The notes below the pieces were generated by a model. That model made no database searches. It worked only from the letters and a program-made list of their open reading frames with translations, and was not told where the DNA came from. DNA of 62,645 nucleotides, filler included, from Rhabdomonas costata (taxonomy: Eukaryota): the NCBI GenBank assembly GCA_019059605.1. It is 35 parts of 35 records of this genome, joined end to end, with 100 filler letters (N's around TTAATTAATTAA, not from the genome) between each part and the next. Parts side by side here need not be neighbours in the genome. Positions count along the whole stretch, not along the records: positions 1 to 1,694 come from JAHMHO010010556.1; 34 more parts are not named here. The stretch is one strand, 5' to 3'. Below, one piece after another: positions 1 through 52,845 of the stretch. The stretch's first letter is position 1. Each line of letters begins with the position of its first letter. The translations under genes were made by a program, and so were the position numbers.

Positions 1-453
1 TGTTCTTGGCCAATCGCGCAGCTTTTGAATTTATTAGAATCTTTTCTTTTCCGTGTGGATTCACCTTTTAGTAGACTTTTCAGTGCGTGCATCATCAGTT
101 TCTCACTTCGTGGCGTTAGCAGTGCCAAAGGTTCATCACTAACTCACTAAATCACTAAAATTCATGTTTGCTCCAACCCAAGCGACGTCTTGCGTTGCTT
201 TGTGTGTCCCCAGACGATCCCAAGACGAAAAATATCAAGTTCCCCCATTAAAGCGTTAGTGTCCGCTGAAATGTCAAGGTCGTACGAAGCTTTTCTGCTA
301 TCGGTGTGCTGTGAAGTCAATACTACACAAAAAAGTTCAATGCACCGTTCTTAAGCCAGTTTCCAGCCAGTTCCCCCTTTGCTTGTCACACCAGGTATGC
401 TCGCTCCTTGCTCCCTGGCTCGGATGTTCTCTCCTATGCCACCCTCTCAAAAG

Positions 454-1619
454 GCCTCAGCCAGGATCGCGTGGTGTGGATCCACGGCGACGCCATGGAG
501 CTAGCCAAGCTTGTCCCCAATGTGGTGGACATGGTCTTCTTGGCGAACACTTTTCATGGGATCCCGGAGAAGGCCAGGCTCATCGCCGCTTTGGCGACCG
601 TGTTGAGGCCCGGGGGCCGCAATCTTTTACTCTTGGGTTTCGAGGGACGGATGCGCCTCCACTCATTTGCAGAATTTCTTGAGCACAGCTCGGGGTAAGA
701 ATTCCCCGCCTGTGTTAAACCATAACATCATTTGTAGCTCGGTAGGCTTTTGACCCCCGGCAGGCCTCCCGGAAGTCGGGATGTGTTGTATTTCACAGTG
801 TACTGCTTTCAGACCATGCCTGGAAGTTATGGAGAACCTCTCATGCACATTTGGCAGTGTGTCGTCATCCCGTTGTCCGGCCTGAAATCGAGGGCTGGCT
901 GGGGGGCCACTACCCTATACCCTCTTGACCTTATGAGCAGGGTAGGCAATACCACTACATACCTCTACACCCGGAACCCCTCAAGGTCTCATGGCCTAAC
1001 TATCGGGCTCACGGGGCGGATCGGGCTGTTCAGTGGTGTTGGTGCGCAAGCTGTGCAAGCTAGGCAATTAGCTTGGGCCTGTATTTGGAGACTGCTTAGG
1101 AGACTGGAGGCTGTTGTTTGTATTTGTTTTCTTACTTATTTATTTGTCTTAATTATCTGTTTACGTACTTAGGTGTTTAGCATAGCCCTCTTCCACATGA
1201 CCGCATAGGTGTGAGGGAAAGGGGGTGTTCGTGTCGTGTGGATTTCCTCCGAGGCTCAATTCCTTTCGAACTTTTGGTTCAGCCATCACCCAGAGATCGC
1301 TGTTGGGTCCTCGCCTCAATGGTGTGGCACGACAACCGAAATATTTAATGTGGATCTAGTTCTTTTTTATGAGTGGAGGACGTACCCTTCATAAAGCCCG
1401 AGCCCATTCCGCTTCATTGTGGTAAACTGGCACCACATTCCCCGGGAAGAGACTGTAGTCCTGGGTGAGCCCAGCGGTCCCCCGACAGAAATGCGGATGT
1501 CCCCGAGGGAGACAGCTGAGGCGGTGGAGCCCCAGGGGTTTGCCTTGAGGAAGGTCATTGAACTACCACCGTACCACTACGCCTCGGTTTTCGAGAAGAA
1601 GCACAGCGTAGGTGCCTGA
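454..1619 (+). CDS. Class I SAM-dependent methyltransferase, last two exons (about 454-620 and 1413-1619), 5'-partial
   Basis: The joined translation GLSQDRVVWIHGDAMELAKLVPNVVDMVFLANTFHGIPEKARLIAALATVLRPGGR|FIVVNWHHIPREETVVLGEPSGPPTEMRMSPRETAEAVEPQGFALRKVIELPPYHYASVFEKK contains the post-motif-I GDA, the motif II D-x-V and the LRPGG motif. There is an AG acceptor at 452-453; the internal intron is non-canonical (see findings). Confidence 0.85.
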
Positions 1620-1794: not shown

Positions 1795-4700
1795 TGGGTT
1801 TTGTGAAGCGAGACAGACGATGCCACAACGGGGGTACGTCCGAGATCCCTACTCCGTCGCAGGTATGCAAGTGAGTTGGCGAATGAGTGAGTGACTGAGT
1901 GAGAAGGTGTGAATCTCACTTCGCAGCCGTTGTTTGCACAGCAGAAATTGGACATTTTTTTAATCCTTCCTGAATGGGTTGTCGCCTGATGGAGACGCGT
2001 GACGTTTTGTCCCCCCCCCCCCGCAACCGATGGTGTGCCCTTATCTTTTGCATAGGCTTCAGGGACATCGATTCACCTCCCGACCCGATCATTGGAGCAG
2101 TGCAGCTTCGTTTGGCGGCTTCCGCTGATCACAGGTTGCGTTTCCCTTCGTTCCGGGTCAGGGATGTCTGAAGGGGTCGGGATGTGGGATGCTTATACCA
2201 CTGTTTTATTGCCAGTGCCATCTTAAAAGGGACAGTTGGAAAGTTGTATCAAAAAGCAACCATTAGGATTTGCGGGTGCGGGGGAGTGAAAAATTCGTGT
2301 CATGTCAGCACGGCTGCTGCCTGCGCATCGGAAGCTCCCATATTTAGGTTACCTTTTCTGGGGTATGCCGGCGTTTCCCAAGTGCTTGTGGCATAAGGTG
2401 TAGTTTTTGTTTTCTCACCTTTGCCTGGTCGCGGGCCACTTTTTTTCTGGGCCCCCCGCCCACCAACCGGACCAGGCTCTTCGTCGTTGCATTCCCCTTG
2501 CTCACACAAAACACTTTTTTCGCGGTTTGTGCAGTGAAATGCTGTCATGCGTTGCAGCGTTCCGCCGCGGGGCAACGTTGCCCGTCCCGCACGTCCGCCT
2601 GCCCTAGCGGTTGCCGCTGCCGCTACTTTGCCTGCCACGACGCCCTTTGTGCCATTGCCCGGGGTGGTGCTTCCGGTGGTGGTGTCGCTTCCGCCACCGT
2701 CGCCCCCCTCGCCGCAGCCACTGCCGCTTCCTTCGACGCCCAGCACCCCTGGGAGCTCGGCGGGCTCGGTGGGGCCTGCAGGGGAGGAGCCCTGGCCGTG
2801 CCCCCACAACCGAAGCTGGAAGCGCCTTCGGGTGAAGAAGGTGAGTTTGCCGTTTCCTCAGAGTTCTCTTTGATGAGCTTAGTTCCAGAACTTGTCCTTA
2901 TCCATCTGGTGGCACTGAAGGCATTCTGCTCCTTCGGCCAGTCGTTTTTTTGCCGCAGGGCAGGCGGACAAGTGTGGACTGCGTCGTATGCCTCACTCGG
3001 GACACAGCTCGAAGAGTGGTATTTAGTTCCCTTAGCTTTTTGGGTGGCCTCCTGAGCCTGACCCCCCAATCTCTCACCTTAGGGCCTGAGCCACTTCCTG
3101 TGCACGCATTGCGGGGCCAAGTGGAAGGGATCTCCGTACTTCCTGCAGTTCATGGGGCAGCACAGCGGGGCCGAAAATGGGGTGGTGACACCAACTGTGT
3201 GCCAAGTGTAAGGCCGAAGGCCTTCCAGAGGCCTCCCCTTCCCAGTGTTCCTTTCCCTTCATCTTCGTTGGATTTCGTTACATTCTTTTTTTTTTGCTTC
3301 TGTGCGCATCTGCCTCACTCCCGTTGCCTTCCGTGCCCCTTATCCACAGAGTGTGGGGGGTGGAGGCACGGGGTAGGGAGGTGCACGTTCAAAAAATGAT
3401 GCCCCCAATCCTTTTTCTGGTACAACTTTTGTATCGCTGTGCACGGTGGTTGCACTGAGTATGTACATTCGTTTCGAAAACACACCCCNNNNNNNNNNNN
3501 NNNNNNNNNNNNNNNNNNNNNNNNNNNNNNNNTTAATTAATTAANNNNNNNNNNNNNNNNNNNNNNNNNNNNNNNNNNNNNNNNNNNNTGTGGCAATGAT
3601 TGGCGGGGTCATTGATCTCGGCGAAGGAGATGGACGTGCTCACCTTGTACGAATCCCAAACAATCGAGTGGCCGTCTGGTCATGAAATCCCATCCCACCT
3701 CACGTGGCCATAGGATTTATGTACTACTTTTGAAGCGCTTTCCGAAATCTCGGCTGGGAGTGTTAACTTCATGCAATGGCACTTGCTTCAGAGAAGTGCG
3801 GCTGTCCCAAGTGTGCTCTAAATAGGCAAGGGTATTACCGATGGACTTGCTACACTCTTCGCTGATACTGAAGTATTACGCGTCAAAAACCACACAGACT
3901 TCGTGGTTGTTCAAGCGCCACTGCGGATCCACCTTACGCATGAGGAGCAGCTCTTCTAGGTTAATGGCATCTTCGAATGGTGCTCAAGTTGGAACTGGAA
4001 TCGATTGGCCTAGGAGTCGATGGAGGGTATGCACAAACTTTGGTCGCATGTGTGTGTACTGTTGCTGGCTCTTCTGCGGTGATGGCTACCCTGAGAGTGA
4101 CACTGATTTTTGCATCCCCGATTCCAAAGTAGCGGCTGCTGGATCATGAATTGTTGAATGTAGTTTAACTAACGTGAGTTCATTGCAGACAATGAACTGA
4201 AGGAGCTGAATGAGCGTCCTCCACATTGCGCGGTGTATCCGTTAAAACGATTGCTTCTTCCGCACCTGCCAACGGACCGATTGATGGTGGCGCGGAAACC
4301 ATCTCTGGTGAAAAAGAAGCGTGATCAGTCGGTTGTGTGAGAGGGGACCAAACATCCGTCCCGTTAAAGTGAGTGGTAGTTGATTGTACAGCAAATCTAA
4401 TAATGGTAGCAATGTTACGGCCAGTAAGGCAAAGTAGTCTTCAAAAGCGAAAAGGGTTCTGGGGTTTGAGACATCCTGCACCTGATGTGAAGTCGACAGC
4501 CAATGATGTTCGCTCAGTCCGACCCTCTCATAACTGCACGTAACCCATCATACTGCTGCTCCGCATCACTGGAGCATTTGCCCCAAGCGGATATTGTTTT
4601 ACAGATCCTCGTGATTCCATAGCATCCACTTCTTGGCGAAGTTGTGCTCAAGCCACTCGCGCACATAGGCCCAGTCATGGCGCCTGTAGTTGAAATCACT

Positions 4701-5563
4701 ATGATATATATCATATATCATAGTGATCATATATATATGATGCGGGTAATCTGCAGTACATGGCACAGTGCCTCATGGGTGCTCATGAACTTCCTGAATT
4801 CTGCATTTGTGGCAAATTATCCCTCCAAATAAATCCCGCGTACCATTGGCAGGCGGGAGTGTCAGCTCTGCAGGTTTCCTGATTGAGCCGACCTCTTGAT
4901 GGAATATGCCAGAATGTACCCCTTTTCAACACCTCGTTGTCCAAGGCAGACAAATGGAAAAGCGTCGAAAAAATACCGTTCCACGATGAGCTCGCGCCAC
5001 GGACAATAAAAATACAGAATCGTGAGATAAAGAAGTGTTTACCAGTATTTGAGCTTGAGCTCAAAAGTACATGTGCGCTGATAGCAGAGTGACTGTATTA
5101 GGCGCATCTGTTGGCTTTGAGGTTATGTATAACCAGAGAATTATTGGAGGACACAAAGAAGTAGGTAGATTATGTGCTGGAGTTCGATTTTGCGTACGAG
5201 TTGGTTGCACATTTCTATGACGCCTGCATAGTTCTTGCAAGCGGCGCAAGCAAACGCCAGTGGACTGTTCTCCCCACACCCCNNNNNNNNNNNNNNNNNN
5301 NNNNNNNNNNNNNNNNNNNNNNNNNNTTAATTAATTAANNNNNNNNNNNNNNNNNNNNNNNNNNNNNNNNNNNNNNNNNNNNTGTGGTTGGGGAATGGTT
5401 TTCAATACTGCATGGAGATACATGTCAAAACTAAGCTGAGGGAGCCCAACAAGGCACAAGTGTGCAAGCTTCGGTTTGACATGTATCTCCATGCAGTATT
5501 GAAAACCATTCCCCATCCTCAGCCGCTCGCTCCGGGGGGGGGGGCATGTCAAGAGGTGCACAC

Positions 5564-10600: not shown

Positions 10601-11384
10601 TCTCCGGAAGGTCCATCGTGAGAAGCACGGGGTTAGGTGTGGTGGAGTCCCCAACCCACACCCNNNNNNNNNNNNNNNNNNNNNNNNNNNNNNNNNNNNN
10701 NNNNNNNTTAATTAATTAANNNNNNNNNNNNNNNNNNNNNNNNNNNNNNNNNNNNNNNNNNNNGGGGGGTGGTGACTTTCGGAAAAAACGCGGACAACCA
10801 GATCCTCACGTCAGGAGCACCCTGCTCCAGCCACGCCTGCACACGGGATTGAGTGCGGGAGGACAGGTGAGCGCTGCTGAGGTGGGGATCTGGTTGTCCG
10901 CGTTTTTTCCGAAAGTCACAACTGAAAACTCCAAATCAGACATTTTTCGGACTTAGAAGCGAAAGCGAAAAGGGGGTGGAGATAAATTGGCCATTATCTG
11001 GAGGTGGTTGTGCTTCCTTTCGGCCTGTTTTTTGTGTATCAAAAAGTACATCTTACTTTTGGGCCATATTTACCCACCATGGCTCGAATATCCCTGGTAT
11101 ACACCACCTGGGTTCTGGGTCAAGGTAACATTTGGTATTCGCTTCTCACCTGCTGTCAAATTAAGTGGCACTCGTCTCTTACAGCATGTCAAAGCAACGC
11201 ATTCCCATGTTCAGAGGTTGATCTGAAAACGCGAATCTCTCGAGCCAAGACTACCCCAGCCCAACCCCTACCCATTTCTGCTATATCTCAAGATGGAGCA
11301 ATTGCAGAGGGAATGGTCGATACAGGCAGCCCCGCGGAGAAAATGAAGTCCGCCACAAGGGTCACGGAAAGGGCACGAGGGACC

Positions 11385-12186: not shown

Positions 12187-12890
12187 CTGAAAAGCAAGCA
12201 ACTCCGCTCTCCCCTTCCAAATCCAACCAGAGTAGAAAAGCCAATGCTCGGCCTTTCTAAAAAATCCATTTGTTCACGGAAACCACGCAATTCGAAATGA
12301 AGCAGCAAATCAAGTAAACTAATAAACATGCAAAAGTGGAAAACAAACAAGGACACCACAAGCACGTGGTTTGCAAGTTGTTCCTGCTCAACTTTTCAAC
12401 TACAAATGCCCATATATCGACTCAAGCGTCAAATTAGCTATGAACACCATACTCCATTNNNNNNNNNNNNNNNNNNNNNNNNNNNNNNNNNNNNNNNNNN
12501 NNTTAATTAATTAANNNNNNNNNNNNNNNNNNNNNNNNNNNNNNNNNNNNNNNNNNNNGGAGACGATGAAGCGGCGGCCCGCAGCCTCGGGAACCTGAAA
12601 TACGGAGCAGCCGGAAACGTTTGTGTGGGGCACTACAACAACAGCAAGGGAATTGCCCGACGTCGTTGGCGATGAGATTGACATCCCTCGGGGTGGATCG
12701 AGGAGAATTGCCCAGAAAGCTTTCCTTTAAAAACGGTTGCCATGAACCTTTGTGGCTAACACTGAGCAACTCTGAGCTGCAGCGACTGCTGTTGTAGAAA
12801 TGGAAGGTGGTCAAATATTTATTCAACGCCACTATTGATTGGTCTGTCATTTCTGCGCTCTGTATCCAAATTATTCAAAGAGGAAAGCAC

Positions 12891-14070
12891 CTCAAGGGCG
12901 GCCACATGGGCCTGGGCCGCGTCCCGCACGTCCACCACGCCGTAGCAGCCCGGACCCGTCCCACTAGCGAATAGCCTGCCCTCCAGCATGTCCTTCACCA
13001 GAGCCACGCTGGTACCATCGGTGCGGTTGGCGAGGGGCGGCCCCAACATGAAGCTGGGGTTGATCGCCACCATCTCCATCCCCGCTCGTCGCTGCGAATG
13101 CTCCTGACCCCGCCCCCACAAAAAAGCCTGCAGGAAAAACGTTCAGTTTGGACTTTCGGAAAGTTCGGAGCATCCATATCTTCATTATCTTTTCACCCAA
13201 GTAGGTGGGCGGGGGTCTGCTGTTATAATCCAAGGTCCATCCTTTACGCTAACAGACCACCAGAGCAAGCGGCTGCGAACATATGCGGCAAATAAGTATC
13301 CTCCACACAACTTTACCAGATACACGAAACTAGAAAACTTGATATTCACTGAGATAATCCATCGGAACAGAAAGCACAAACCAACAGCGAAGATCGCTGC
13401 ACACCGAGATGGACCGAAACTCCTGGAAGAAGCGCCACGCCGACTGCTCCGCCATCCGCTTGCTGTACCGGTACGGATTCTGCCCAAGGTGGGACTCCAG
13501 GTTCCAGTCCTTCTCCGTGAATATCTTCCGTGGGTCCGCCGGAGGGCTGTCCGGAACCACCGCGGAGGTGCCGGACGTCAGCACCACCCGGCGCACCCCC
13601 GCCGACGCGGCATTCCTCAGCACGTTCAGCGTGCCCTGCACCGCGGGCACCACAAGTTCCCGCGTCCGGTTTCGGGAGAACGGTCGGTACGGAGAGATCG
13701 TGTGCACGACCCATGGGCAGCCCTGGAACACCTCCCGAAAGTTTCGGCTGCGGAGCAGTTCCGTCTCGTAGAGGCTCACGCTGCCCGGGGGCAATTTGGC
13801 GGCCATGGCTCGGAGATGGGCCGTGCGAGAGGGGTCTTGCAGGCTGCGTACGGTGCCTCGAACGGTATAGCCTCGAGCCAGTAGGGCGGCAATGATGTGC
13901 CCGGCGAGGTACCCCGAGGCTCCGGTGACCGCCACACATTGGATTCCTGAAGAACGCTGGTGACGACTGCTGTGATGCTGTTGAGTGATGGAGGGGCTCG
14001 GTGAAGTTGCCTGAGTTATTTCCAGGATGGCGAAAAACACGACGACAGATGTGACAGCGAGTGCGGACAT
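12891..14070 (-). CDS. NAD(P)-dependent epimerase/dehydratase, dihydroflavonol-reductase / aldehyde-reductase-II-like extended SDR; exons 14070-about 13423 and 13103-12891, 3'-partial
   Basis: Contains the VAVTGASGYLAGHII Rossmann motif, GYTVRGTVR, PAVQGTLNVL, the catalytic YRYSK (YxxxK), and then VAINPSFMLGP and VDVRDAAQAHVAALE in exon 2. The N-terminus is hydrophobic. Confidence 0.92.
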
Positions 14071-14376: not shown

Positions 14377-15938
14377 GTGACGATGCTCAGTGCCACGCTA
14401 TGCAACTTCGCCGGAATGGTCACTCACCTCACCGCCGCTGAGCTGGTGCAGTGGGTTGGCTACACCTTCAGTGTGGTGGACCAGGCCGCGGAGTTCTTTG
14501 CGGTGCACCGCGTCCGCGTGGCCGGGGACACCTACCTCGCCATAACTGGGCTGCCTGGAGGCACCTCTGACCCTGCACTGGGGGACAACCACAGCTTTCG
14601 GGTGCTGCAGTTCGCGGCGGTCATCATCCAGGCACCTCTCTCCCCCAACTTTGTTTTTGCGGTGGTTGGGGGCCGAGCCTAATACCACAGGTCGCGAACG
14701 GCAAAAAGGAACTTTTTCAGTGAAAACTTACCTGCACAAGAAGCAATGTTGCAACACGTACGGGGGGGGGGGTTCGGTCCCTTCATACACACACCACCCA
14801 CTCACCTGTACTCCCAAGAACTCGCGCAGAAAATTTTGACTTCCTAAAAAATCAGTCGAGTTCGTTTCAAAGTGTTTGGGAACCTCCACAAACTGATCTC
14901 TGAGTTGAGTTACTTTTTTGGGGGTTCGGTTGTGCAGCTCGTTACTTTTTGAACTCGTACTTGTTGAATCCCCCCCCCTCTCTTCCCAAACTCTATAGCT
15001 CCTCTTTTGAAGCTCTGACCGTCCTGTAGAAGTTCCATGTGAATCCCAGTTGGGCAGCGCTTGCTATTTGCGAGTGCTCAGTACGCACCGTGAATAACCG
15101 AGGGTGAGTAGGGGGTGGATACCGGGATGATTCTCCAGGCTATCGCCTCGCAGTCCGCCGTGAGCAGCTAGCCTTATCGACAACTTCGGCTCTGAAACTC
15201 CACTCTACCTTTTGACCTGTATCCCTACCCCTGGACTCTCTTAACCCCATTTCTGGTTCCCTCTGTGCTGGCCCCTGAACCCTAACCCAGGGCGTTGTTC
15301 TCAGTATTTAATTGTTGCAGCGATTACCGCTTTAAAAGGGCCAACGCGAAGATGGCAGGCGGCGGCTATCAAATGGATGCTCTCAGGAGCGTTGGGCTGC
15401 GAAACACCCTGCAACTCCTTCTCGCCACCTACAAATCTTCTGTCTTCTGGTTGTGGATCGTAATCCACAAGTGCGTCGTGCGGTGTCCTCATTTGTGAAC
15501 AACCGGTATGTGGGAGTGGGGGGGGCTGCAGTGCCCCAGAGCTATTGACGATCAGAGCCGCTGCTGGAATTGCTCCTTTCTCATTCGCAGCTCTTCAGCG
15601 GACGCTACGACCACCCGGATGCGGGGATGATCCTCCAGGCCATTGCCTCGCAGTCCGCCGTGAACCAGAAGAGGGCCCGCAAGCCCCACGGCCACCGCAA
15701 GCACTCCACCGCCTCCCGGGCGTTGTCCCGGCCAGGCGACCTCCGCAGCGTGGCCTCGTCGTCGTTCAGCTCGGGCACGACCAGCACAGCGGCAGGGGCG
15801 TATGCGTCCCGCTCTGGGGGGAGGTATACCTTCCAGATTGGGGTAGCCTCTGGGCCGGTGACCGCGGGGGTACTGCAGGGGAAGTGCCCGACCTTCGACG
15901 TGTGGGGCCGCACGATGCACTTGGCTTCCCGTCTGCAG
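14377..15938 (+). CDS. Class III adenylate/guanylate cyclase-like domain (degenerate), exons 14377-14631 and 15591-15938
   Basis: VTMLSATLCNF...VHRVRVAGDTYLAITGLP and FQIGVASGPVTAGVLQGKCPTFDVWGRTMHLASRLQ align to the cyclase consensus VTILFADIVGF / KIKTIGDAYM / RIGIHTGPVVAGV...YDVWGDTVNLASRME. The exons join in frame through a GC-AG intron. Confidence 0.88.
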
Positions 15939-17231: not shown

Positions 17232-18820
17232 GCAAGTTGTTAGTGGATCCATGCTTGGAGCCGCGGGAGATTCGAGAAGTGGGCATGTAAGACGACAGCT
17301 TTTGCTGTAAAGTCAATGCGGGAAAGGCTCATTTATGATGGGACGAATGTGCGACCGTGAAACCCGAGCAAGATTTCCAGTGTGTTATACGGTGTGTATC
17401 TCCCGGGAAGCCGACCAAACCAAACCTGACCTTAACGGATGCTGTGATTTCCAGCTTGACGCTCCTCTTGATATCTATACGTCTCCAAAAGGTGTGGCAG
17501 CCGGTATATCAGTGGTCGTCGGAGGGATCATTGTCCTTCGTTGTATGGTTTCTCTCTCTCGTAGTGCTCCACGATTCGTGTCGTTTGTATCATTAGAGGG
17601 GGGGGCTTTGGTTCGCAGAAAGGGGAGCTGTCTTTTCTGGACTGCTTGGAGCTGGACGATAGTGGGAAACCCGCAGGTGTGTGGGAGGTGGCGGTGAAAT
17701 GCGTTGTTAGAACACAAACGATGTGCAGGTTTTGTTTGCTTTGTTTCTACTGACGAGGTCCCACTTTGTTTCGGCTCGCGTGGGCGCTTGAGACAAAGCA
17801 GCAACCAAAAAACAAAAGCAAAGGTACAAAAACCCNNNNNNNNNNNNNNNNNNNNNNNNNNNNNNNNNNNNNNNNNNNNTTAATTAATTAANNNNNNNNN
17901 NNNNNNNNNNNNNNNNNNNNNNNNNNNNNNNNNNNGGGTGTTGGTTCCTGCCACCGAAACAACTTGCCATTCGGAAAAGACAACAATTTATCGCCACTGC
18001 ATTCAAGGGCATCATTTAACTCTTGCCGAATGGCAAGTTGTTTCGGTGGCAGGAACCACCACTTAATCACACCTTCACAAAAAGGAAGGGTCTATATGAG
18101 TGGTGTGTCTGTGAGTGTAAGTGCGTGTGTGTGGGAGGGGGGAGGTGAGTGGCAGCGCCTCGGCCGTGGCAGCTGAAACTCAAGAAGGGGGTACTAAAAC
18201 CGAAGTGCAGAGTCGGATGATCTTGGAATGGGAGCATGAGTGGGAGAGGGGAGGAGAGAGGAGGCAATTACCCGTGCCTTCTCTGCCTCAATGTCGCCGT
18301 GCATTGCCGCACTGTAACGTGCCCCCACCTGCACAAGCGCACAGAAAGCACAGTAGTTACGTTTGGGGCAACTTCACTGTGTATGCGATCAAATCAACGG
18401 CCTCCTTCAGACAGCTATCAAAACAACTCTGTCGCATCCGTGGCAGCGGTTTTTTTGGGGGGAAGGGCTGACCACTTCCATACTTCTACACCCCAGTAGT
18501 GGACCGCGTTGATTGATGGGCGTCTAGCCTTTTATGATTGCCCACTGCTAAAATCCACCTAACCTCGGAGAGCCCCGACCATGGCACCGTCCTTGGAGCT
18601 CTTTGGGACAGAACACAAAGAAGGGCGACGTGGCAGCACAGTGTGGGTGATATCATCCACGGTGCATGCGTGTAAGCAGCAAGTAACCCCCCACCCGTAA
18701 ACAAACTCGGCTCCGTATTTCACGCCGGCGATGGTGTTCTAAAAACAACAAGCACTGCCACCCCTCCCGCGTCTCTCTTTACACACACATGATACTGGCG
18801 TCTGCACGAACACCTTACAC

Positions 18821-20515: not shown

Positions 20516-21160
20516 TCACACAAACTCGTCGCAGGGGTCCTCAGGAGTCAGGTTGTCTTTCATGCCGAAAAGTTCGCGCATCTCTTCCACCGTCTTGCCT
20601 GATGAAGTGAGGAAAAACCAAGGGAGAAGGGTGCGCTCCGTTTATCACAAAACAAGCTCATTTCTCGGGTTGCGTCGGGCCTTGGAATGAGGCTAGTGCT
20701 GGGGTTCTGGGCTGCTGGGGAAGTCGAATTGCACAAAACTAACCGATCTATAGGGGTCGTGTTCAAGTCACTCAGTAGGATCTGACATCTCTTGTCACAA
20801 AAACAGAGACTAGGGAAGAACACTCTACCACAAAGCAGGCGGAGGTCACCCAAAATGTGTAATCGAAGGAAGTCATAATAACCACCTGAAATACTGTCGC
20901 ATCTGTCCGAGATGCCCCCCCTCCAGGAGATTACGTGCGACGAGAGGGCAAAATTCAAAAACTCTTCTCTGTCGTGACTTATGTCTTACCAACAGGATGA
21001 AGCTCTGAAATGCACACAGTGGAACAAGCGAACCATAAAATACATCCGAGTATTCCACAACGTACTGCAGAACACTGCTGCTCACCTTCAAGAGGGGTAC
21101 TACCGTGGTCTCCGGATGAATCTCGAGAATGTCCTTGATCATACCCGACATGGCAGCCTC
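20516..21160 (-). CDS. Skp1-like protein (divergent); N-terminal part near 21160-21050, last exon 20598-20516
   Basis: AAMSGMIKDILEIHPETTVVPLLKVSSSVLQYVVEY resembles the Skp1 POZ region (S..IK.M.E....IPL.NV.S.IL.KVIE), and GKTVEEMRELFGMKDNLTPED resembles the Skp1 C-terminus GKTPEEIR..FNI.ND.TPEE. I could not place the middle AANYL exon. Confidence 0.7.
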
Positions 21161-27107: not shown

Positions 27108-30100
27108 ATGGCGCCTTGGCGCGGTGTGCTGTGGCGTATCCTTGTGCTGCTTGTTCTGCACACCTGTTGGTTTTTTGGCGCGTTCACGGTGCTGCTGTTC
27201 GTGCTGGACGACACGACACACACACACAGTCAGTATGTCCCAGGTCCCAACATAAGTTTGGACGAAAACGCGTGCCAACAGGAGCGCGACATTTTAAGTA
27301 AAAAACTAAACCCTGACTACGCACGCACACACGGAAAGACGCCAACACGAGTATGGAAGCCTGACGGCAGGGGGAGGAACCTACAAGTACCAAGCTGCCT
27401 ATGCGAAGACCCGAGCAGAGATCACGGGAAAGAACGAATGGTAAATGCAAATGAAACATATCAGCACCAGAGCAATTGCAAAGAGCCATAACCGCCTCCC
27501 TCCCCTCGCATCATATGCAAGACTTGAAAGACAGCAAAATAAACACGCGTTGAACGTTGCGTCTTCAAGGGTGCCGTTCTCCTCCAGACGACCGTGCATA
27601 TAGGAGCCTTATCTTACCATCAGCGTGAATAGTCGCTGAGGAAGCCTCCAAAGAAGAGGTTATCTGAGAGAGAGTGAGAGAGGGCTGAAATTGGCTGCTG
27701 CGCGGCTATACTTAGCGGCGCTGCAACCCCTGCAGATGCCGCTGCTGCTTTACACAACCGTAGGAAAGGTGCCTTTCATCAAGAGAAGGCCTGAGCCCCT
27801 CCCCCTTCAGTGTATTTGAAAGGTCTCAGTGCCGACGCAAGGTGTCCAATTACGAGTTGGAAAACCGATAGGGGCAGATGTTGTCGGGCTTTTGCTCTCA
27901 TGTGCTGAACCTGCGCTCTCTGCAGCAAACTCTTCGCCCCTTTTCACCGCTGCCTGCATCCCAAGAGACGGCCTTTTCCGTTTTAGACGATCCCAAGAGA
28001 CGGCCTTTCCCATTTGCGCGAGTGCGTGAGGTCTTCTTTGCAAAATGGATGCTGCCGCTGCAGGTTACTGCAATGCTGGGTGGGGCGTGGGAATGGGGGC
28101 GCGTCTTTGGTGCGCAATGAATGCCCCGCTCTCAGAAAGCTCTCACAGTCACAGATATTACGCATTGTTATGGAGATTGTTACCGGAAGGTTTTGAAACA
28201 TACACCTCCCTGCTGTTCATTCTCACGATACGGCTGGGAAGTGGTCCACGTTCTACAGGTTCCACAGTGGCATTGCGGGAACGTGTAGCAGTGCTGTAAG
28301 ACCAAAGAGGGTTCTTTTAGTCGTTTCTTTTTTAAGGGCACGGTGGCTGGGAAATTTTTACCATCATAGGGTCATTTGGCAAAAACGGAAATAAAAAAGG
28401 GCGTGCATCGGACAAAATCGCCCCCCGCTCCTCGTCCAACAAACTGGAAACACTGTGCAAGTTCCGTTGTGTCGTACTGCCATGAACCAACATAGAAAAT
28501 TGTGGGATCCCAAAACGGACAAAAGAGGAAAAATAGGGCCAAAATGGAGGCATGTTCAAAATTGGGGAGGCGTGCAACGTTAATTTCCCTTAAACGTTTA
28601 CNNNNNNNNNNNNNNNNNNNNNNNNNNNNNNNNNNNNNNNNNNNNTTAATTAATTAANNNNNNNNNNNNNNNNNNNNNNNNNNNNNNNNNNNNNNNNNNN
28701 NGTGTTTTTGTACTGGCCGTTTTGTTGGTCAGGCGATAATCTATCGAAAAAAGCCTCAACTCGTGAAAACTGGCGACTTGACCAGCCCAGGATTCACGAG
28801 TTGAGGCTCTTTTCGATAGATTATCGCCTGACCAACAAAACGGCCAGTACAAAAAAGTACAAAAAGTACAGCCTACTGCACTTTGATGATCCTCTCTTCG
28901 CTGCCTTCTTTTCTGCATGGCTTCGGCTTTGAAAGTGATTTTGCAGATTAAATAACGTCGGAGATTTTGATGAAAACTGTTTGTCATGTACCCATCCTTG
29001 AAAAACACCCTTCTCGTCGTAAATCCCGCTTTGAGCCGTACATCGTCTCCCACTGCTTAGCAGCGTCCGCCCTTACCACCAGATATTCTAGGAAACCCTG
29101 CAGCGCGAATCCCGACGGCGGAGCTCCGCGCTCTCCCTGACTTCTTCCTCGAGCCCCTCGTGAACACCCAGGGCAGTGCAGGAAGGTCAACTGGCGAATC
29201 GCGTGCTGGCTCTCGAGGAGCCATTTCTGTCCTGGAATTTGTGAGTGCATCGTTTCTGTGCCTGGCAGGTGTACTTCCATGAGAAATCGCTTCATTCCTT
29301 TTTGCAGTGACCAACAAATCAACATATCAGGACAATAAAAAATCGCGTTCTACAGAAGATAAAAAAGGTAAGAGGGGTGATGTGCCCTTTTTCCATTGGT
29401 TTCCGAGTGATATTATTGAACTGAAAGGACTGCCAGTGCAGCAAAGCCATCGCCACTTATATGTACTCTTTGAGAATTTCGTGGGGGTCGAAATCTCTCC
29501 CAGCACTGTGAAAGGAGAGTGGTAACCTGCGGTTACATGCTTTGACAAAGACCTGACCACGCGGTCTTGCGCGTAGAGGTTTCGGTTCACGTTTTGTCAA
29601 CCTGTCAATTTGCAGCCACGTCTTGTTCAATGACCCTCTCGTTATAGGCTTGCTCCATTTAATCAACTAAAAATGCAACACTACGAATTGTGAGAGAATT
29701 TCGAGCTGAAAGAGCCCTCCAATATGTTCCCCGTGGTTTTTTATATGTTCTCCGTCAGCGAATTGCAACTCTTCGAAAAGTCGCTCTGATGCTGGGAGAA
29801 GAATGGAAGCTGCGAGTTACAGAATACCGTCACAATTGGACAGTAATTCCTTGTAGATTGTGCTTTCGTTAGCTGACGGAGGATCTTTCGCCAGTGAGCT
29901 GCGCGAAACTCGAAAGCTATGAGCAGATTCGCTGGACCGCGACAGGCCCCTGGAGGGGTAGCAGCCTCGCGGCGGTTTGGTGACCGACGGGAACCAAGAC
30001 GTACTCACGAGGAGCTCAGCGCTTAGCCATTCAATGGGAGATGAGCGCCCCACCGAGGGCGGTTCGCTAGGACCTAGCAAGTTCGTTCCTCCATTGCTGC

Positions 30101-42551: not shown

Positions 42552-45185
42552 CTGCGGAAGAAAAACACGGATCATCATCCGAATAATATCCCATGAAATG
42601 GGTGCATCGTTGCAGCACGGAATAGAGTGGCGGAAACTTCTTCTCTGGCAACGAAACCTCAATTCTTCTTCACGTGGACGTAACTACTAACTACAATTGA
42701 CTCCCAGTCGAATCAAATGCGAGAGAAAGAGAAGAGAAAGAGAAAGATGGAGGCTGAACTTCACCAGTGCCCACCACCTGACGCGATGGTGGAGGGCCCA
42801 CCCAACTGTCGCCATCAAGCATCAAAGGCTTGCATCCACCTACCTGAGCATGAGACGTTCTTGCAGCTGTGGAGATACTTCTTGGAAACTCTTGGATGGG
42901 ACCGGAAGGGCCTTCAGGCGTTTCAGGCGGCGCTTGGACCGAAGCGNNNNNNNNNNNNNNNNNNNNNNNNNNNNNNNNNNNNNNNNNNNNTTAATTAATT
43001 AANNNNNNNNNNNNNNNNNNNNNNNNNNNNNNNNNNNNNNNNNNNNAAGCAGCAGTCGACTGCTGCTGTGGCCACAGAGCTCTTCCGACGTGGCAAAGGC
43101 CGAGAAGAGGCTGCGCTCTGCCCTGAGCAGCTCTTCTTACGTATCTTTCACCAGCTGCTCTGCACCTCCTCTCACTTGCACAGCCAACCTGTGCGGGGAA
43201 CAGAAAACGAGCGGTAGCGGGGCAAATTTCCTGTGAATGTGACTTACCTCCTTGCGCGAACACCTCCCGCCATATGTGTTTTCATATGTGTTTTCTCTGA
43301 ATCTGGATCGCCTTGTATTCGTGTGCAGTCATGCCGTAGAATCTTCATCGCAATTTTACTTGTGTCCCAGCCCTCTGGTCAATTTTACTTTTTTCCCAGC
43401 CCTGAATCTCAGCGGAACATTGGTTGTTTTGGGTTGTTGTTCTTGTTTTCTGACCCCCTGTGAAACGCCAACCTAGCTTTACGGTCTGTGGCAACTGCGT
43501 ACCGAGTTCCGGAGTGAAAGGTGCCAATTGCTCTTTCCTTGCACTGTTGTGAGGGCATTCACGTGGTAATCTGGCCCTATATGGTTATTCAGGAGCGGTT
43601 GGCACCTCGCCCGCAAGCCATTGGAATATGGTCCGATTCCGACTTTCCCAAAAGTCATGGAGGTTCCTTCTTTTACCCCGCTGCCGCGTTTTCCGGGTTT
43701 TTCTAACCAGATTTGAAGATCGCAGCGTACGAAACTCAAATCGAATTAAAAGGGTTATCGAGCCCGTTTTCCCCAATCGAGTTCTCCTTCTTAATGTCGC
43801 ACCCTTGGTTTGTGGGAAATGGAGCTTAAAGTATGATTAGCAGGACTGCGTCTTCCGAGGAAGTACCAGACAACTAATGCTATTCACACCAGGTTTGGCA
43901 TGCATCGGATGGCTTCCCGATACGCCTACTCCGGACTCATTTCTCTGGGCTGCTGTGGCGAATTTTGTTCTAACAACCATTCGGGGTCGTTTTTGTGCTT
44001 GTTGCTACTTCTCTTTATTATTATTTTTGTCCTTTGAGGTGGTTCTTGTGTTGCTGGGCGGTCCTACAGGTGACAGTACTGGGCTGCTCAGTTGTACCGA
44101 AATTCCTGTGCAGCGAGAACCTTCAGCCTGGACTGTCCTTCCCGTGTACAGTCACAGAGCAACGCTCGCCCCCGCTCCGGGGCCGCAGCGTTCGTTCTTC
44201 TATTCAGGTGCGCTCTGGACTTGAGGGAAGGGGGTTCTGTCTGCCTTTCATGGTTACTCCGGTTTTCCGGCGGTTGGAGTTGGCGGGTGCTTTTTTCAGC
44301 AATGGGGATGGTGGTTTGCTCCTTCTTCTGTTTATATTTTCCAATTAGGGCGGGGGGCCGAGTACTTGCCGACGTTTCAGTCATCAGGCGCCTTTACAGT
44401 CTTCCTGGTATTTGCGTTTGTGCTACGCTTAAGAGTAATACCCTATCCCTGTCTCCCGTCCAGGTGGTGGATGGCATATGAGCATGGCAGAACCATGATC
44501 TGCTCATTTTGACCCACTTTTTGCCAGGTCTAAGTGAGAGTTCCATTTTTCGATTATCCTGGTCCCACTGTTTCAGGGGTTCATTGTTCAGCGCTCGCCA
44601 CTTTTTGACTTTCCAATTCCAGAGTTCCCGAAAAAAGCGTAATTCGTAAAAAAAAATATTTGTAAAAAAAATTCGTGTATGATTTTGGGGAAAAAAACGC
44701 AAAACCCTGATACGTGTTCTTGTTACCACCAAAANNNNNNNNNNNNNNNNNNNNNNNNNNNNNNNNNNNNNNNNNNNNTTAATTAATTAANNNNNNNNNN
44801 NNNNNNNNNNNNNNNNNNNNNNNNNNNNNNNNNNTGTAGGACCCGCTGCTGTCGGCGCGGTGCGCGGTGTGGTACATTCGGGGCCTTCAGGGCGGCGGGG
44901 TTTCGGCGTGTGTGAAGCACCTGATCTGCAATGACGTGGAGTTCCGAAGAATGCAGGTGGGCCTGCGTGCGCATATTGTGTTTCCGACTTTCCATTAGCG
45001 CCACACCTCGAACTGCAATGTATGCCCTAACCCAGTGATGCTGATTGAAAGGGAAATACCATTTTCACTGGTTTCACTTTGCATTGGTTGGTTTGGACTT
45101 CCTTGCCCTCCTGGAGAAAATGGCATTGTAACCCCTGACACTCCTTTCCGGTCCCTGCCCCATTGATTTTTCGCGACTATCAAAG

Positions 45186-46527
45186 GTCAGCGCAGAGGTC
45201 TCCGAGCGGGCCCTGCGGGAGCTCTACCTGGTTCCCTTCGAGGCCGCCGTGAAGGAGGCCGGGGTGTGGGCCGTGATGTCGGCCTACAACAAGCTGAACG
45301 GGGTGTACTGCAGCGAGAGCACCTGCTTGTTGTCGAAGATCCTGAAGGGGGAGCTGGGGTTCCAAGGCCTCGTGATGTCGGACTGGGGCGGCGCCTACAG
45401 CACCGTACCTCCGGCCCTGGGAGGGCTGGACCTGGAGATGCCCGGGCCTCCAACGCAGTGGGGAGACCACCTGCTTGAGGTTTGCTGGAAAAAGGAGCCA
45501 CTGAAATTGCCGCAGATATTTTGTTCCGTTTTGGCGTTTGGTGTTGAACAGGTGGGCCGCAGGATGGTTGTACGGGTGAAGTTGATGGCGCGGCTTGCTC
45601 ATTGTCATCTTCACTGTTTCCTTTGTGAAACGCTGCGTGCCATAGGCACTGCCATTTGACGGGATCAGAACCGGAAGTCGCCTCGGGGGCAACTAACCGG
45701 CCTTTCGTTCAGTTGGTCAAGTTAGAACCGTATTATTCTGTGTGGGTGTCTGTGTGGGGTGCTATATGAATGAAGCTAATTAACCAATCTGGATGGGCTT
45801 TGCCCCTCCCCAGCCCACCCTCCTGGGCATGTGCTTTGTTGCTTTCCTTTGTTGTGCATCGCAAGTGAGATCTAGATCTGCGCCCTAGACAACATCCCCG
45901 CCCAAACAAAGCCGTCCCAAACGTCCGCCCTTGACAAGATGGAAACAAAAAACAAACAAATTTCTGACCGCGTCATCGTCATTATGAAGACTCCAAAAAG
46001 TATCAATAGTTTTGATGAGGCGTGGGAGGAAATATTAGTCCCGTCCCCCGAAAAGAAGGCCTTGCAGATCCAGGAGGAATGCAATCCTTCAGAGGTGTAG
46101 TTTTTGTGGAAGGTGGTTATTGCGCTTTTCCATACCTTCAGGCCGTGCGAGCAGGTACAGTTCCGATGGCCTCCCTGGATGACAAAGTTCGCCGCCTGCT
46201 CCGCCTTCTTGCTCGTACCGGGGTCCTGGAACGAGGCACCTTGGAGCCTCCACCTGAGGCCCCCGCCCCCGAGGACCCTGCCACCCGAGAGCTCCTCCTG
46301 GACGCCGCCACTCAGAGCATTGTCCTCCTGAAGAACTCCGGTGGGGTGCTCCCCCTGCACCCTGAGAAGTTGACCAAAGTGGCGGTCATCGGGCCTGCGG
46401 CGAAGGTTGCGCTCGCTCAGGGTGGAGGCAGCGCCTCGGTCCGGCCCCCGTACGTGGTCACCCCGTTCGAAGGGATCTGCCGGTTCCTGGGCAAAGCCGC
46501 GGAGAACGTCCATGTGGCCCACCACCC
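45186..46527 (+). CDS. Glycoside hydrolase family 3 beta-glucosidase, exons 45186-45479 and 46142-contig end
   Basis: SERALRELYLVPFEAAV, VMSAYNKLNG, ILKGELGFQGLVMSDWG (catalytic nucleophile Asp), GLDLEMPGP, then SIVLLKN...LPL...KVAVIGP...GGGSASV.P.YVVTPFEGI. Phase-0 GT-AG join. Confidence 0.96.
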
Positions 46528-51990: not shown

Positions 51991-52845
51991 GAACTTGTTT
52001 GTGATGAAAGAAGAAAAGGAGATATTGATGTAAAATATAAAGTTATAGGTGAAGAATGTAAAAATATCGGAAATTCTGCATATGGGCGAACATCAATGAA
52101 CAAAGCAAAACATAATAAAACAATTTATGGAGATCAAGCAAAATATAGAAAATCTGTAGCTTCACCATATTTTAGAGATGCTGAACAATTCGGCAAACTT
52201 TATGAGATTCAACAAAGAAAAAGACAAACATATCAGAACATGCCTATTCATATTTCAACAGCTATTTTGCAATATGCAAAATTGCGGATGTTACAATTTG
52301 TGTATGATTTTCTGTATAAGTATGTTGATCGTGAAGATTTTAATTTAATGTACATGGATACAGATAGTATGTACATGGCTATAACAGCTGATAAATTCGA
52401 ATATCTAATTAAACCAGAAATGAAAGATAAATATAATGAAGATAGGTGTAACTGGTTCCCAAGAAATGACACAAAAGAGAATGAAAAGTATGACAATCGA
52501 ACAGCTGGTTTATTTAAAACTGAGTTCATTGGTGACGGGATGATCTGCTTATCAAGTAAATTATATTATTGTCTTGGTGAACAGAATAAGAAAGACAAAT
52601 TTTCGAGTAAAGGTGTGCAGAAAACCAAAAACAACAAACTTTTAAACTACAAAAATTTCAAAAAAGTTCTGTTTTCAAACGTTGATATGATGTGCGAAAA
52701 TATAGGAATGAGACAATTTAACGGCTCTATATACTGGTATAAAACATCGAAAACAGGCCTTAGTGCAGAATATAACAAACGAAATATTATGTGTGATGGT
52801 TTATGTACTGCCCCGCTTGAAGAAACAGATAATAAAACAGAATAA
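51991..52845 (+). CDS. Family B DNA polymerase, protein-primed/Polinton (Maverick)-type, C-terminal palm and thumb, 5'-truncated by the contig end
   Basis: The frame is open from the contig start. It contains motif B CKNIGNSAYG (KxxxNSxYG), QYAKLRMLQFVYDFL, motif C YMDTDS, RTAGLFKTE, SKLYY, KFSSKGVQK and GLSAEYNKR...DG..T.PL. It is intronless and strongly AT-rich, unlike host exons. Confidence 0.93.
   Translation, partial: ELVCDERRKGDIDVKYKVIGEECKNIGNSAYGRTSMNKAKHNKTIYGDQAKYRKSVASPYFRDAEQFGKLYEIQQRKRQTYQNMPIHISTAILQYAKLRMLQFVYDFLYKYVDREDFNLMYMDTDSMYMAITADKFEYLIKPEMKDKYNEDRCNWFPRNDTKENEKYDNRTAGLFKTEFIGDGMICLSSKLYYCLGEQNKKDKFSSKGVQKTKNNKLLNYKNFKKVLFSNVDMMCENIGMRQFNGSIYWYKTSKTGLSAEYNKRNIMCDGLCTAPLEETDNKTE

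Follow-up and report, generated by a model that had tools for sequence, protein, structure and literature searches.

A slidable 792-nucleotide insert with complementary ends in a methyltransferase gene of Rhabdomonas costata, a candidate atypical euglenid nonconventional intron

The nonconventional introns of euglenids have variable, non-canonical borders and an RNA structure that draws their ends together, and the mechanism of their removal is unknown (PMC4770533; PMC6221363). They are reported to make up 57 to 72% of Euglena introns (PMC11170887, PMC12501133), with 16,151 of 28,337 introns and a mean length of ~520 nucleotides (nt) in E. gracilis (PMC11170887) and 71.8% of 649,158 introns in E. 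agilis, where 84.4% of all introns are slidable via short direct repeats (PMC12501133). Here, we analyze a 792-nt insert in a methyltransferase gene of Rhabdomonas costata (GenBank assembly GCA_019059605.1), which had been proposed, from a reading of the DNA, to be an intron of this kind (referred to here as the original prediction). The whole stretch of DNA that was analyzed, called the window below, is 62,645 bases long and consists of 35 contigs of ~1.69 kb, ordered by size and artificially concatenated with 34 linkers of the form N44-TTAATTAATTAA-N44 (1695-1794, 3489-3588, etc.); genes that are adjacent in it are not genomic neighbors. The methyltransferase locus lies entirely within the first contig (positions 1 to 1694).

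Several rules have been described for nonconventional introns. Milanowski et al. reported that positions +5 and +6 pair with -8 and -7 in 55 of 55 of these introns and that +4 pairs with -6 in 54 of 55 (PMC4770533), and a pyrimidine followed by a purine at both junctions is given as the consensus of the class (PMC3935182). A splicing code, 5'-N3-CDG ... CH'G-N5-6|R, is reported for 61.2% of E. agilis nonconventional introns, and in knock-in experiments, splicing was abolished when a single change was made in CAG or in CTG or when the 5' spacer was changed by 1 nt (PMC12501133). The class is further marked by the absence of a polypyrimidine tract ahead of the 3' end, and slidable borders are common in it without being a requirement. 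Gao et al. described a terminal test in which the first 10 nt of an intron, U7, and the last 10 nt are folded together; in E. gracilis, 131 of 4,498 (2.9%) and 436 of 11,653 (3.7%) nonconventional introns scored 0 kcal/mol, versus 35% for GT-AG introns (PMC11170887). In addition, nonconventional introns are reported to be excised after the conventional ones (PMC6221363) and to be released as circles (summarized in PMC11282704 and PMC12501133). The assertion in the original prediction that euglenids have introns of this architecture, with an unresolved mechanism of excision, is thus well documented (PMC12501133, PMC11170887, PMC4770533, PMC3935182).

The gene that contains the insert encodes a class I S-adenosylmethionine (SAM)-dependent methyltransferase of the Methyltransf_11 type, of which the penultimate and last coding exons lie on the plus strand at 453..620 and 1413..1619. 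The penultimate exon matches Pfam Methyltransf_11 with an E value of 5.1e-07 (profile positions 42 to 92 of 95), and its frame, which is open from 315, reads ATVLRPGGR up to the CGC codon at 618-620; if left unspliced, this frame runs for 25 further codons to a TAA at 696. The last exon, with 68 codons plus the stop, reads FIVVNWHH from 1413 and proceeds to a TGA at 1617-1619. In tblastn searches with the homologues P0001 to P0003, 450/477-617 was covered at 45 to 62% identity and 1413-1598 was covered, without gaps, at 55 to 61% identity. Residues 77 to 130 of P0001 fell on 450-617 and residues 132 to 193 fell on 1413-1598, and the one residue left between them is the CGC codon. The homologues, which are from metagenomes and Rhizobium-type bacteria, are 195 to 218 residues long and read LRPGGLFAIVNWH without interruption.

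Between the two exons lies an intervening sequence of 792 nt (621..1412 in one of five equivalent registers, which run from 617-1408 to 621-1412), flanked by two copies of a 4-nt direct repeat, CCGC, at 617..620 and 1409..1412. The slide of the border is exactly 4 nt, as bases 616 and 1408 differ and so do bases 621 and 1413, and when a 792-nt gap was placed at random in the remaining contigs, the slide was at least 4 nt in 208 of 9,755 cases (2.1%). The ends of the insert in the five registers are CC..TT, CG..TC, GC..CC, CA..CG, and AA..GC; none of these is a GT-AG or GC-AG pair and none ends in AG. Excision at CCGC yields LRPGGR|FIVVNW, and several homologues read PGGRFIVVNW, the same as the proposed join. 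An FHG-to-NWx span of 30 residues is found in 74 of 75 homologues, the remaining one being outside the pattern searched for, and among the in-frame junctions compared, only the CCGC-slid join gives a span of 30. The join, the CCGC slide, and the lack of any register ending in AG, all parts of the original prediction, are therefore borne out by direct reading and by the homologues.

The composition of the insert also differs from that of its flanks. The G+C content at third codon positions (GC3) is 0.84 in 450-620 and 0.71 in 1413-1616, versus 0.53 with a flat periodicity in 621-1412, and the insert contains seven in-frame stops, the first of which is the TAA at 696. No Pfam family was matched at E ≤ 0.1 by the five open reading frames (ORFs) inside it, and searches of Rfam gave no match at the gathering score in the window and none at E ≤ 1 in 1-1694. 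Read from the DNA, the insert is an intervening sequence that would have to be removed at borders other than GT or GC with AG for the conserved protein to be made, and the protein points to the CCGC-slid junction as the putative site of removal.

The two ends of the insert are complementary to each other. The core helix pairs 652..666 with 1369-1384 and consists of 11 perfect bp (656-666 with 1369-1379, the only inverted repeat of at least 10 nt in 560-1480) and a 4-bp extension, with A1380 bulged. In the ensemble computed for 560-1480, the pair probability is ~0.99 for the 11-bp helix and 0.92 to 0.98 for the extension (652-655 with 1381-1384). An outer closing helix of 9 bp, 2 of them G-U, pairs 632..640 with 1394-1402 in the minimum free energy (MFE) structure, so that the 3' arms of both helices fall within 1369..1402. 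The original prediction had three stacked helices, and all three complementarities are present; however, the middle one (642-649 with 1381-1389, 8 bp, A1384 bulged) has a pair probability of ≤0.12 because it competes with the 652-655 extension for 1381-1384, which leaves two helices. Thus, the ends of the insert are predicted to form an imperfect, bulged rod of ~29 bp (632-666 with 1369-1402), with pairing beyond what is expected by chance. The 5' junction itself lies in the 3' arm of a predicted local hairpin at 602..623 (602-605 with 620-623 and 607-610 with 615-618 in the MFE structure, with pair probabilities of 0.42 to 0.56), which may simply follow from the RPGG codons.

The duplex formed by the 60-nt ends has a predicted energy of -44.4 kcal/mol, compared to -24.4 ± 4.0 kcal/mol for dinucleotide shuffles, with none of 2,000 shuffles as low. 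In the other 34 contigs, 14 of 849 natural pairs of 60-mers spaced as these are were as low, showing that loose pairing is fairly frequent in the GC-rich DNA of this genome; a perfect complement of at least 11 nt was much rarer (2 of 2,350 natural placements). Folding of the insert, suggested with the original prediction, recovers the end rod in the MFE structure, but the fold of the whole 830 nt of 601-1430 is not unusually stable (z = -1.6, 20 shuffles); the special stability is confined to the ends, and the interior is ordinary. For a rod construct, the sense strand (-40.6 kcal/mol) is also favored over the antisense strand (-34.9 kcal/mol) by 5.7 kcal/mol, and the two mismatched positions in the outer helix both pair as G-U in the sense strand, which gives a weak hint of selection at the level of RNA.

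On this basis, the reading we favor is that the insert would be a nuclear euglenid-type nonconventional intron in a bacterial-type SAM-methyltransferase gene, excised at the CCGC-slid junction, a statement to which, taken as a whole, we assign a probability of roughly one-half. That it is an intron of the nonconventional type cut at some junction, wherever this may be, is probable. The reading is favored by the slidable non-GT-AG borders, the complementary ends, the euglenid context, and the fact that this class is the commonest kind of intron in euglenids. In the pre-mRNA, the rod of 632-666 with 1369-1402 would bring the two junctions together, and the insert would then be excised at the CCGC slide by the euglenid machinery for nonconventional introns, with 619-1410 as the likeliest register. 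Excision would follow that of the conventional introns, and the insert would be released as a circle, as reported for Euglena. Register 619-1410 (GC..CC) has C|G at both junctions, i.e., a pyrimidine followed by a purine, which none of the other four registers has.

A number of observations weigh against this reading. At most one of the three pairs between +4..+6 and -8..-6 can form in any of the five registers (checked by hand), and all five score 0.0 kcal/mol in the terminal 10-nt test. None of the registers carries the N3-CDG/CH'G-N5-6|R code, and a scan of ±15 nt around the junctions finds it only at 608-1405. The original prediction had noted the missing CAG/CTG pair near the ends, which the scan and direct reading both confirm, although the departure from the described introns is wider than it had stated. 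The outer helix is only moderately probable (0.42 to 0.66), and the insert is not clearly poorer in pyrimidines ahead of its 3' end than conventional introns are (a fraction of 0.60 at -27..-3, versus 0.64 to 0.72 in four conventional introns of the window). Furthermore, in a search of longer proteins among 5.8 billion clusters, in a collection that includes the EukProt Euglena gracilis and Rhabdomonas costata proteomes, neither exon had a match above 71% identity, and no transcript-derived protein that crosses the junction was found, though short partial products may have been missed, as the "near" length class was unsearched.

Since it has neither the code nor the terminal pairing, the insert would fall among the ~39% of annotated nonconventional introns that depart from the code and the 3 to 4% without terminal 10-nt pairing. 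It is thus an atypical member of the class, and the name nonconventional intron applies in a loose, operational sense only. This part of the original prediction stands with respect to the non-GT/GC-AG junction, the paired ends, and the euglenid context, but the near-terminal pairing and the code that characterize described members are absent.

Protein conservation favors the CCGC-slid junction, while known splicing rules favor other cuts. There are three such in-frame cuts: 608-1405 (GCC-CGG ... CCG-AGCCC|A, 798 nt), in which FR replaces PGGR; 629-1408 (780 nt), which clears the closing helix by 3 and 6 nt on its outer side and leaves a 12-nt footprint that adds NLFR; and 608-1402 (795 nt), a GC-AG pair that would be removed by the spliceosome. 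All of them keep the frame, and their terminal 10-nt pairing energies are -8.5, -8.1, and -10.8 kcal/mol, respectively, versus 0.0 for the homology junction, but the FHG-to-NWx spans that they produce are 28, 34, and 29 residues against the 30 of the homologues, and both cuts at 608 delete a conserved PGG turn that is still intact in the DNA. Within ±15 nt, the pair 608-1405 alone satisfies the rule for motif, spacer, and purine reported in PMC12501133. However, code-compliant pairs arose within ±15 nt by chance in 1,003 of 2,615 random placements, and frame-keeping ones in 542 of 2,615, so this pair carries no weight alone, and its CGGG/CCCG pairing has an ensemble probability of 0.0. The helix-to-border geometry of 629-1408 is typical of nonconventional introns, but its motif is CTT/GAG rather than CDG/CH'G, and its next exon would start with C, which gave an unstable transcript in the reported knock-in test (PMC12501133). 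The GC-AG alternative at 608-1402, raised with the original prediction as what transcripts might use instead, has a G at +5, the sole prominent base of E. gracilis GC-AG donors as reported in PMC11170887, and the window holds another GC-AG intron (14632-15590); against it are a poor pyrimidine tract, a GCCCGG donor, and a product that lacks RPGG. This is the only frame-keeping GT/GC-AG pair, and with its 29-residue span and the loss of RPGG, a conventional U2-type intron does not fit a junction that restores the protein. Taken jointly, these three cuts seem to us an unlikely explanation.

It is likewise rather unlikely that the insert is never spliced and represents a recent insertion, either a sequence resembling a MITE (miniature inverted-repeat transposable element) or filler from double-strand break (DSB) repair, in what would be a young pseudogene or a gene for a protein truncated 25 residues after LRPGGR. 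The 4-nt direct repeat resembles a target-site duplication, subterminal inverted repeats are present, and the insert has no signal that has been shown to be necessary for nonconventional splicing; no transcript-derived protein of the gene was found among longer proteins even though the euglenid proteomes of EukProt were searched, and an exon start at 395 may cost the protein the acidic residue conserved just past beta-2 (YARS, versus YALD in homologues). Yet both exons are intact, gap free, 55 to 62% identical to homologues, and strongly biased in codon use (GC3 values given above), and nonconventional introns account for most gene interruptions in a genome of this kind, which makes an intron the more likely prior. 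A search for further copies of the insert and its termini, also suggested with the original prediction, detected no second copy in the other 34 contigs (60 kb; best match, 18 nt, E = 0.15). Where the original prediction had terminal inverted repeats plus a 4-bp direct repeat, the CCGC repeat is there, but the inverted repeats lie 11 and 6 nt away from its copies, which is not the arrangement of classical MITEs. MITE-like elements or DSB repair have been proposed as sources of nonconventional introns in view of their direct and inverted repeats (PMC3935182, PMC4770533); for this insert, such an origin is neither supported nor excluded. An assembly artifact, in which a chimeric short-read contig places 792 nt that are not inside the real gene, is very improbable. 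The assembly is extremely fragmented, and four contigs start with artifact-like fold-back repeats of 40 to 69 nt, but a chimera would need foreign DNA exactly between adjacent codons, with both halves of the gene on the same strand and in order, plus a 4-nt repeat and mutually complementary ends, and 1-1694 contains no N or linker.

Other candidates were tried and rejected. Group I and group II self-splicing introns were set aside as no conserved RNA core was matched in Rfam (E ≤ 1 in 1-1694), and a bulge-helix-bulge site of the tRNA type was rejected since no exon-exon helix lies beside the junctions. The U12-type donor motif is RTATCCTT, and the 5' end of the insert is unlike it. By direct reading, no AG lies in frame to pair with the GT at 600, and extension of the upstream exon to a GTAAGA donor at 694 would add 25 residues and also finds no in-frame AG acceptor. 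A bacterial contaminant gene carrying an insertion element was ruled out by the absence of the N-terminal half of the enzyme from 1-449 and by the eukaryote-like context of the AG acceptors.

The 5' limit of the upstream exon is uncertain, as AG acceptors are found at both 451-452 and 393-394, each after a C/T-rich tract. By tblastn, no frame of 1-449 encodes the N-terminal half of the enzyme, and this, together with these acceptors, indicates that the gene carries at least one further, probably conventional, intron upstream. Among longer proteins, the penultimate exon had 3 matches at ≤62% identity and the last exon had 72 homologues at 52 to 71% identity, none of EukProt origin, and in metagenome contigs we found 21 loci, all at ≤67% identity and bacterial looking. 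All the homologues found are of the bacterial type, and the eukaryotic proteomes of that collection contributed none, which could mean that the gene was acquired laterally and gained its introns afterwards.

Elsewhere in the window, several conventional introns (GT-AG or GC-AG, 229 to 959 nt) are preceded at their acceptors by C/T-rich tracts. A GH3 beta-glucosidase fragment (44840-46525, plus strand) has two GT-AG introns, 44957-45185 and 45480-46141, whose junctions agree in alignment with a PDB enzyme and with the EukProt Euglena gracilis protein EG_transcript_3032. A GH3 exon is 71% identical to this protein by BLASTP (69% for the middle exon by tblastn), but it is equally near bacterial proteins, the E. 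gracilis protein being 6th of 120 in order of summed score. The intron of a MatE gene (24004-23663, minus strand) is of the GT-AG type and has its acceptor after a strikingly C-rich tract (23700-23681), and the GC-AG intron mentioned above, at 14632-15590, belongs to an adenylate/guanylate cyclase gene. Within that intron, a 47-nt stretch (15117-15163) is 89% identical to the start of the downstream exon (15617-15663), 500 nt upstream of it, and could be a pseudo-exon or a partial duplication. The conventional donors read GTGGGC, GTTTGC, GTCCGC, GTGGCC, GTGCCT, and GTGCTT (at 44957, 45480, 24004 [minus], 15939, 23497 [minus], and 12889 [minus]); they are mostly of the GTG type, none has A at +4, and they recall the E. 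gracilis consensus for conventional donors, reported as GTGTG (PMC11170887).

A cinnamoyl-CoA/dihydroflavonol-reductase-like gene has minus-strand exons at 13405-13962 and 12822-13142, the first of which shares 69 of 96 residues (72%) with a EukProt protein from Rhabdomonas costata; of the ten best matches examined, eight others with a single matched stretch were at ≤52% identity. This exon gives the strongest indication of taxon in the window, and judged by the genes alone, the genome is probably that of a euglenid or a near relative. Neither the reductase exon nor the GH3 exon is identical to its EukProt entry. The reductase intron (~13404-13092, minus strand) probably starts with GTGTGC at 13404 and ends at an acceptor at 13105-13104 or 13093-13092. 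No rRNA, spliced-leader RNA, or tRNA was found in the window (Rfam at the gathering score and a tRNA scan), and no other nonconventional intron with homology support was found there by an intron-finding approach that favors GT-AG. A window-wide scan for code-compliant stems gave 359 of at least 9 bp, versus 299 ± 20 in shuffled sequence, and 140 of at least 10 bp, versus 117 ± 15, a small excess that is too noisy to show that the code operates; the strongest matches were fold-backs at contig ends.

At the start of four contigs, no more than 0 to 5 nt in, stand fold-back inverted repeats (5383-5521, 10769-10922, 17938-18062, and 28705-28855) that have arms of 40 to 69 nt, 92 to 96% complementary, and loops of 13 to 54 nt. 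These look like assembly or amplification artifacts, or real fold-back elements, and a perfect 22-nt palindromic hairpin is internal to another contig (22735-22783). An AT-rich contig (51989-53681, GC content of 0.34) carries a 284-residue ORF (51991-52842, plus strand) with a YMDTDS motif, which we take to resemble motif C of family B DNA polymerases. This ORF had no match in Pfam (E ≤ 10), PHROGs (E ≤ 0.01), or PDB sequences (E ≤ 1), and it could be a fragment of a polymerase from a mobile element or virus. Finally, in a Skp1-like gene (20519-21160, minus strand), one exon matches Skp1_POZ and the last exon ends with GKTVEEMRELFGMKDNLTPEDP, but the conserved middle part between the two was not found in any frame; the locus has either several small exons or is a degenerate copy.

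If spliced at CCGC, the insert would offer a convenient test of introns outside the sole genetically defined code, which covers ~61% of the majority intron class of Euglena. Real excision at CCGC with neither the CDG/CH'G pair nor any pairing within 10 nt of the ends is a possibility that we hold tentatively, at less than even odds. It would mean that the nonconventional machinery, or a second one, locates cleavage sites 13 and 8 nt beyond a distal rod with the help of a cue that is not the published code, for which the candidates are the hairpin at 602-623, the pyrimidine|purine steps in the direct repeat, and a guide acting in trans. The insert would then be a compact natural substrate for working out the rules of the ~39% of nonconventional introns that lie outside the code. 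If it is unspliced, the locus would be a young pseudogene or an early insertion and would bear on the origin of these introns from transposons or DSB repair.

Among the described systems, the insert can be compared with introns of hemistasiid diplonemids, such as Artemidia and Namystynia, and with introners. Like the former, it has ends that are not GT-AG and that pair extensively, but the hemistasiid introns, whose ends are variable, have median lengths of 37 to 91 nt, make up ~97% of introns, and pair within the terminal 9 nt (PMC12621601), and the several GT-AG and GC-AG introns in this window, at 229 to 959 nt, are unlike that pattern. [quoted passage not shown] In contrast to introners, its inverted repeats are subterminal and do not adjoin the repeat, and it has no demonstrated family of copies. 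Introners of the Micromonas type and those of dinoflagellates use GY-AG sites derived in part from the target-site duplication, and there are none at this insert; the context genes here also point to euglenids and not to alveolates.

The closest likeness is to the euglenid introns themselves. Intermediate introns have one canonical border, usually 5' GT or GC, and a stable end structure, and it has been argued that these canonical 5' ends reflect no more than a purine being favored as the first base of the intron (PMC4770533); in register 619-1410, the insert likewise starts with GC and has a non-canonical 3' end and a stable end structure, although the GC depends on the register chosen. It differs from the nonconventional introns in that its helix is 11 to 15 nt inside the 5' border and 6 to 10 nt inside the 3' border, across the five registers, where 3 and 5 to 6 nt are usual, and in lacking the +4..+6/-8..-6 pairing and the CDG/CH'G pair. 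As in those introns, there are no GT/GC-AG borders at the junction that restores the protein, the ends are complementary and predicted to draw the junctions close, the border can slide along a short direct repeat, a pyrimidine is followed by a purine at both junctions in one register, the length of 792 nt is within the usual range, and the host gene seems to have a conventional intron upstream. The insert would be one instance of a known phenomenon, an ordinary kind of euglenid intron with unusual ends rather than a new type of element.

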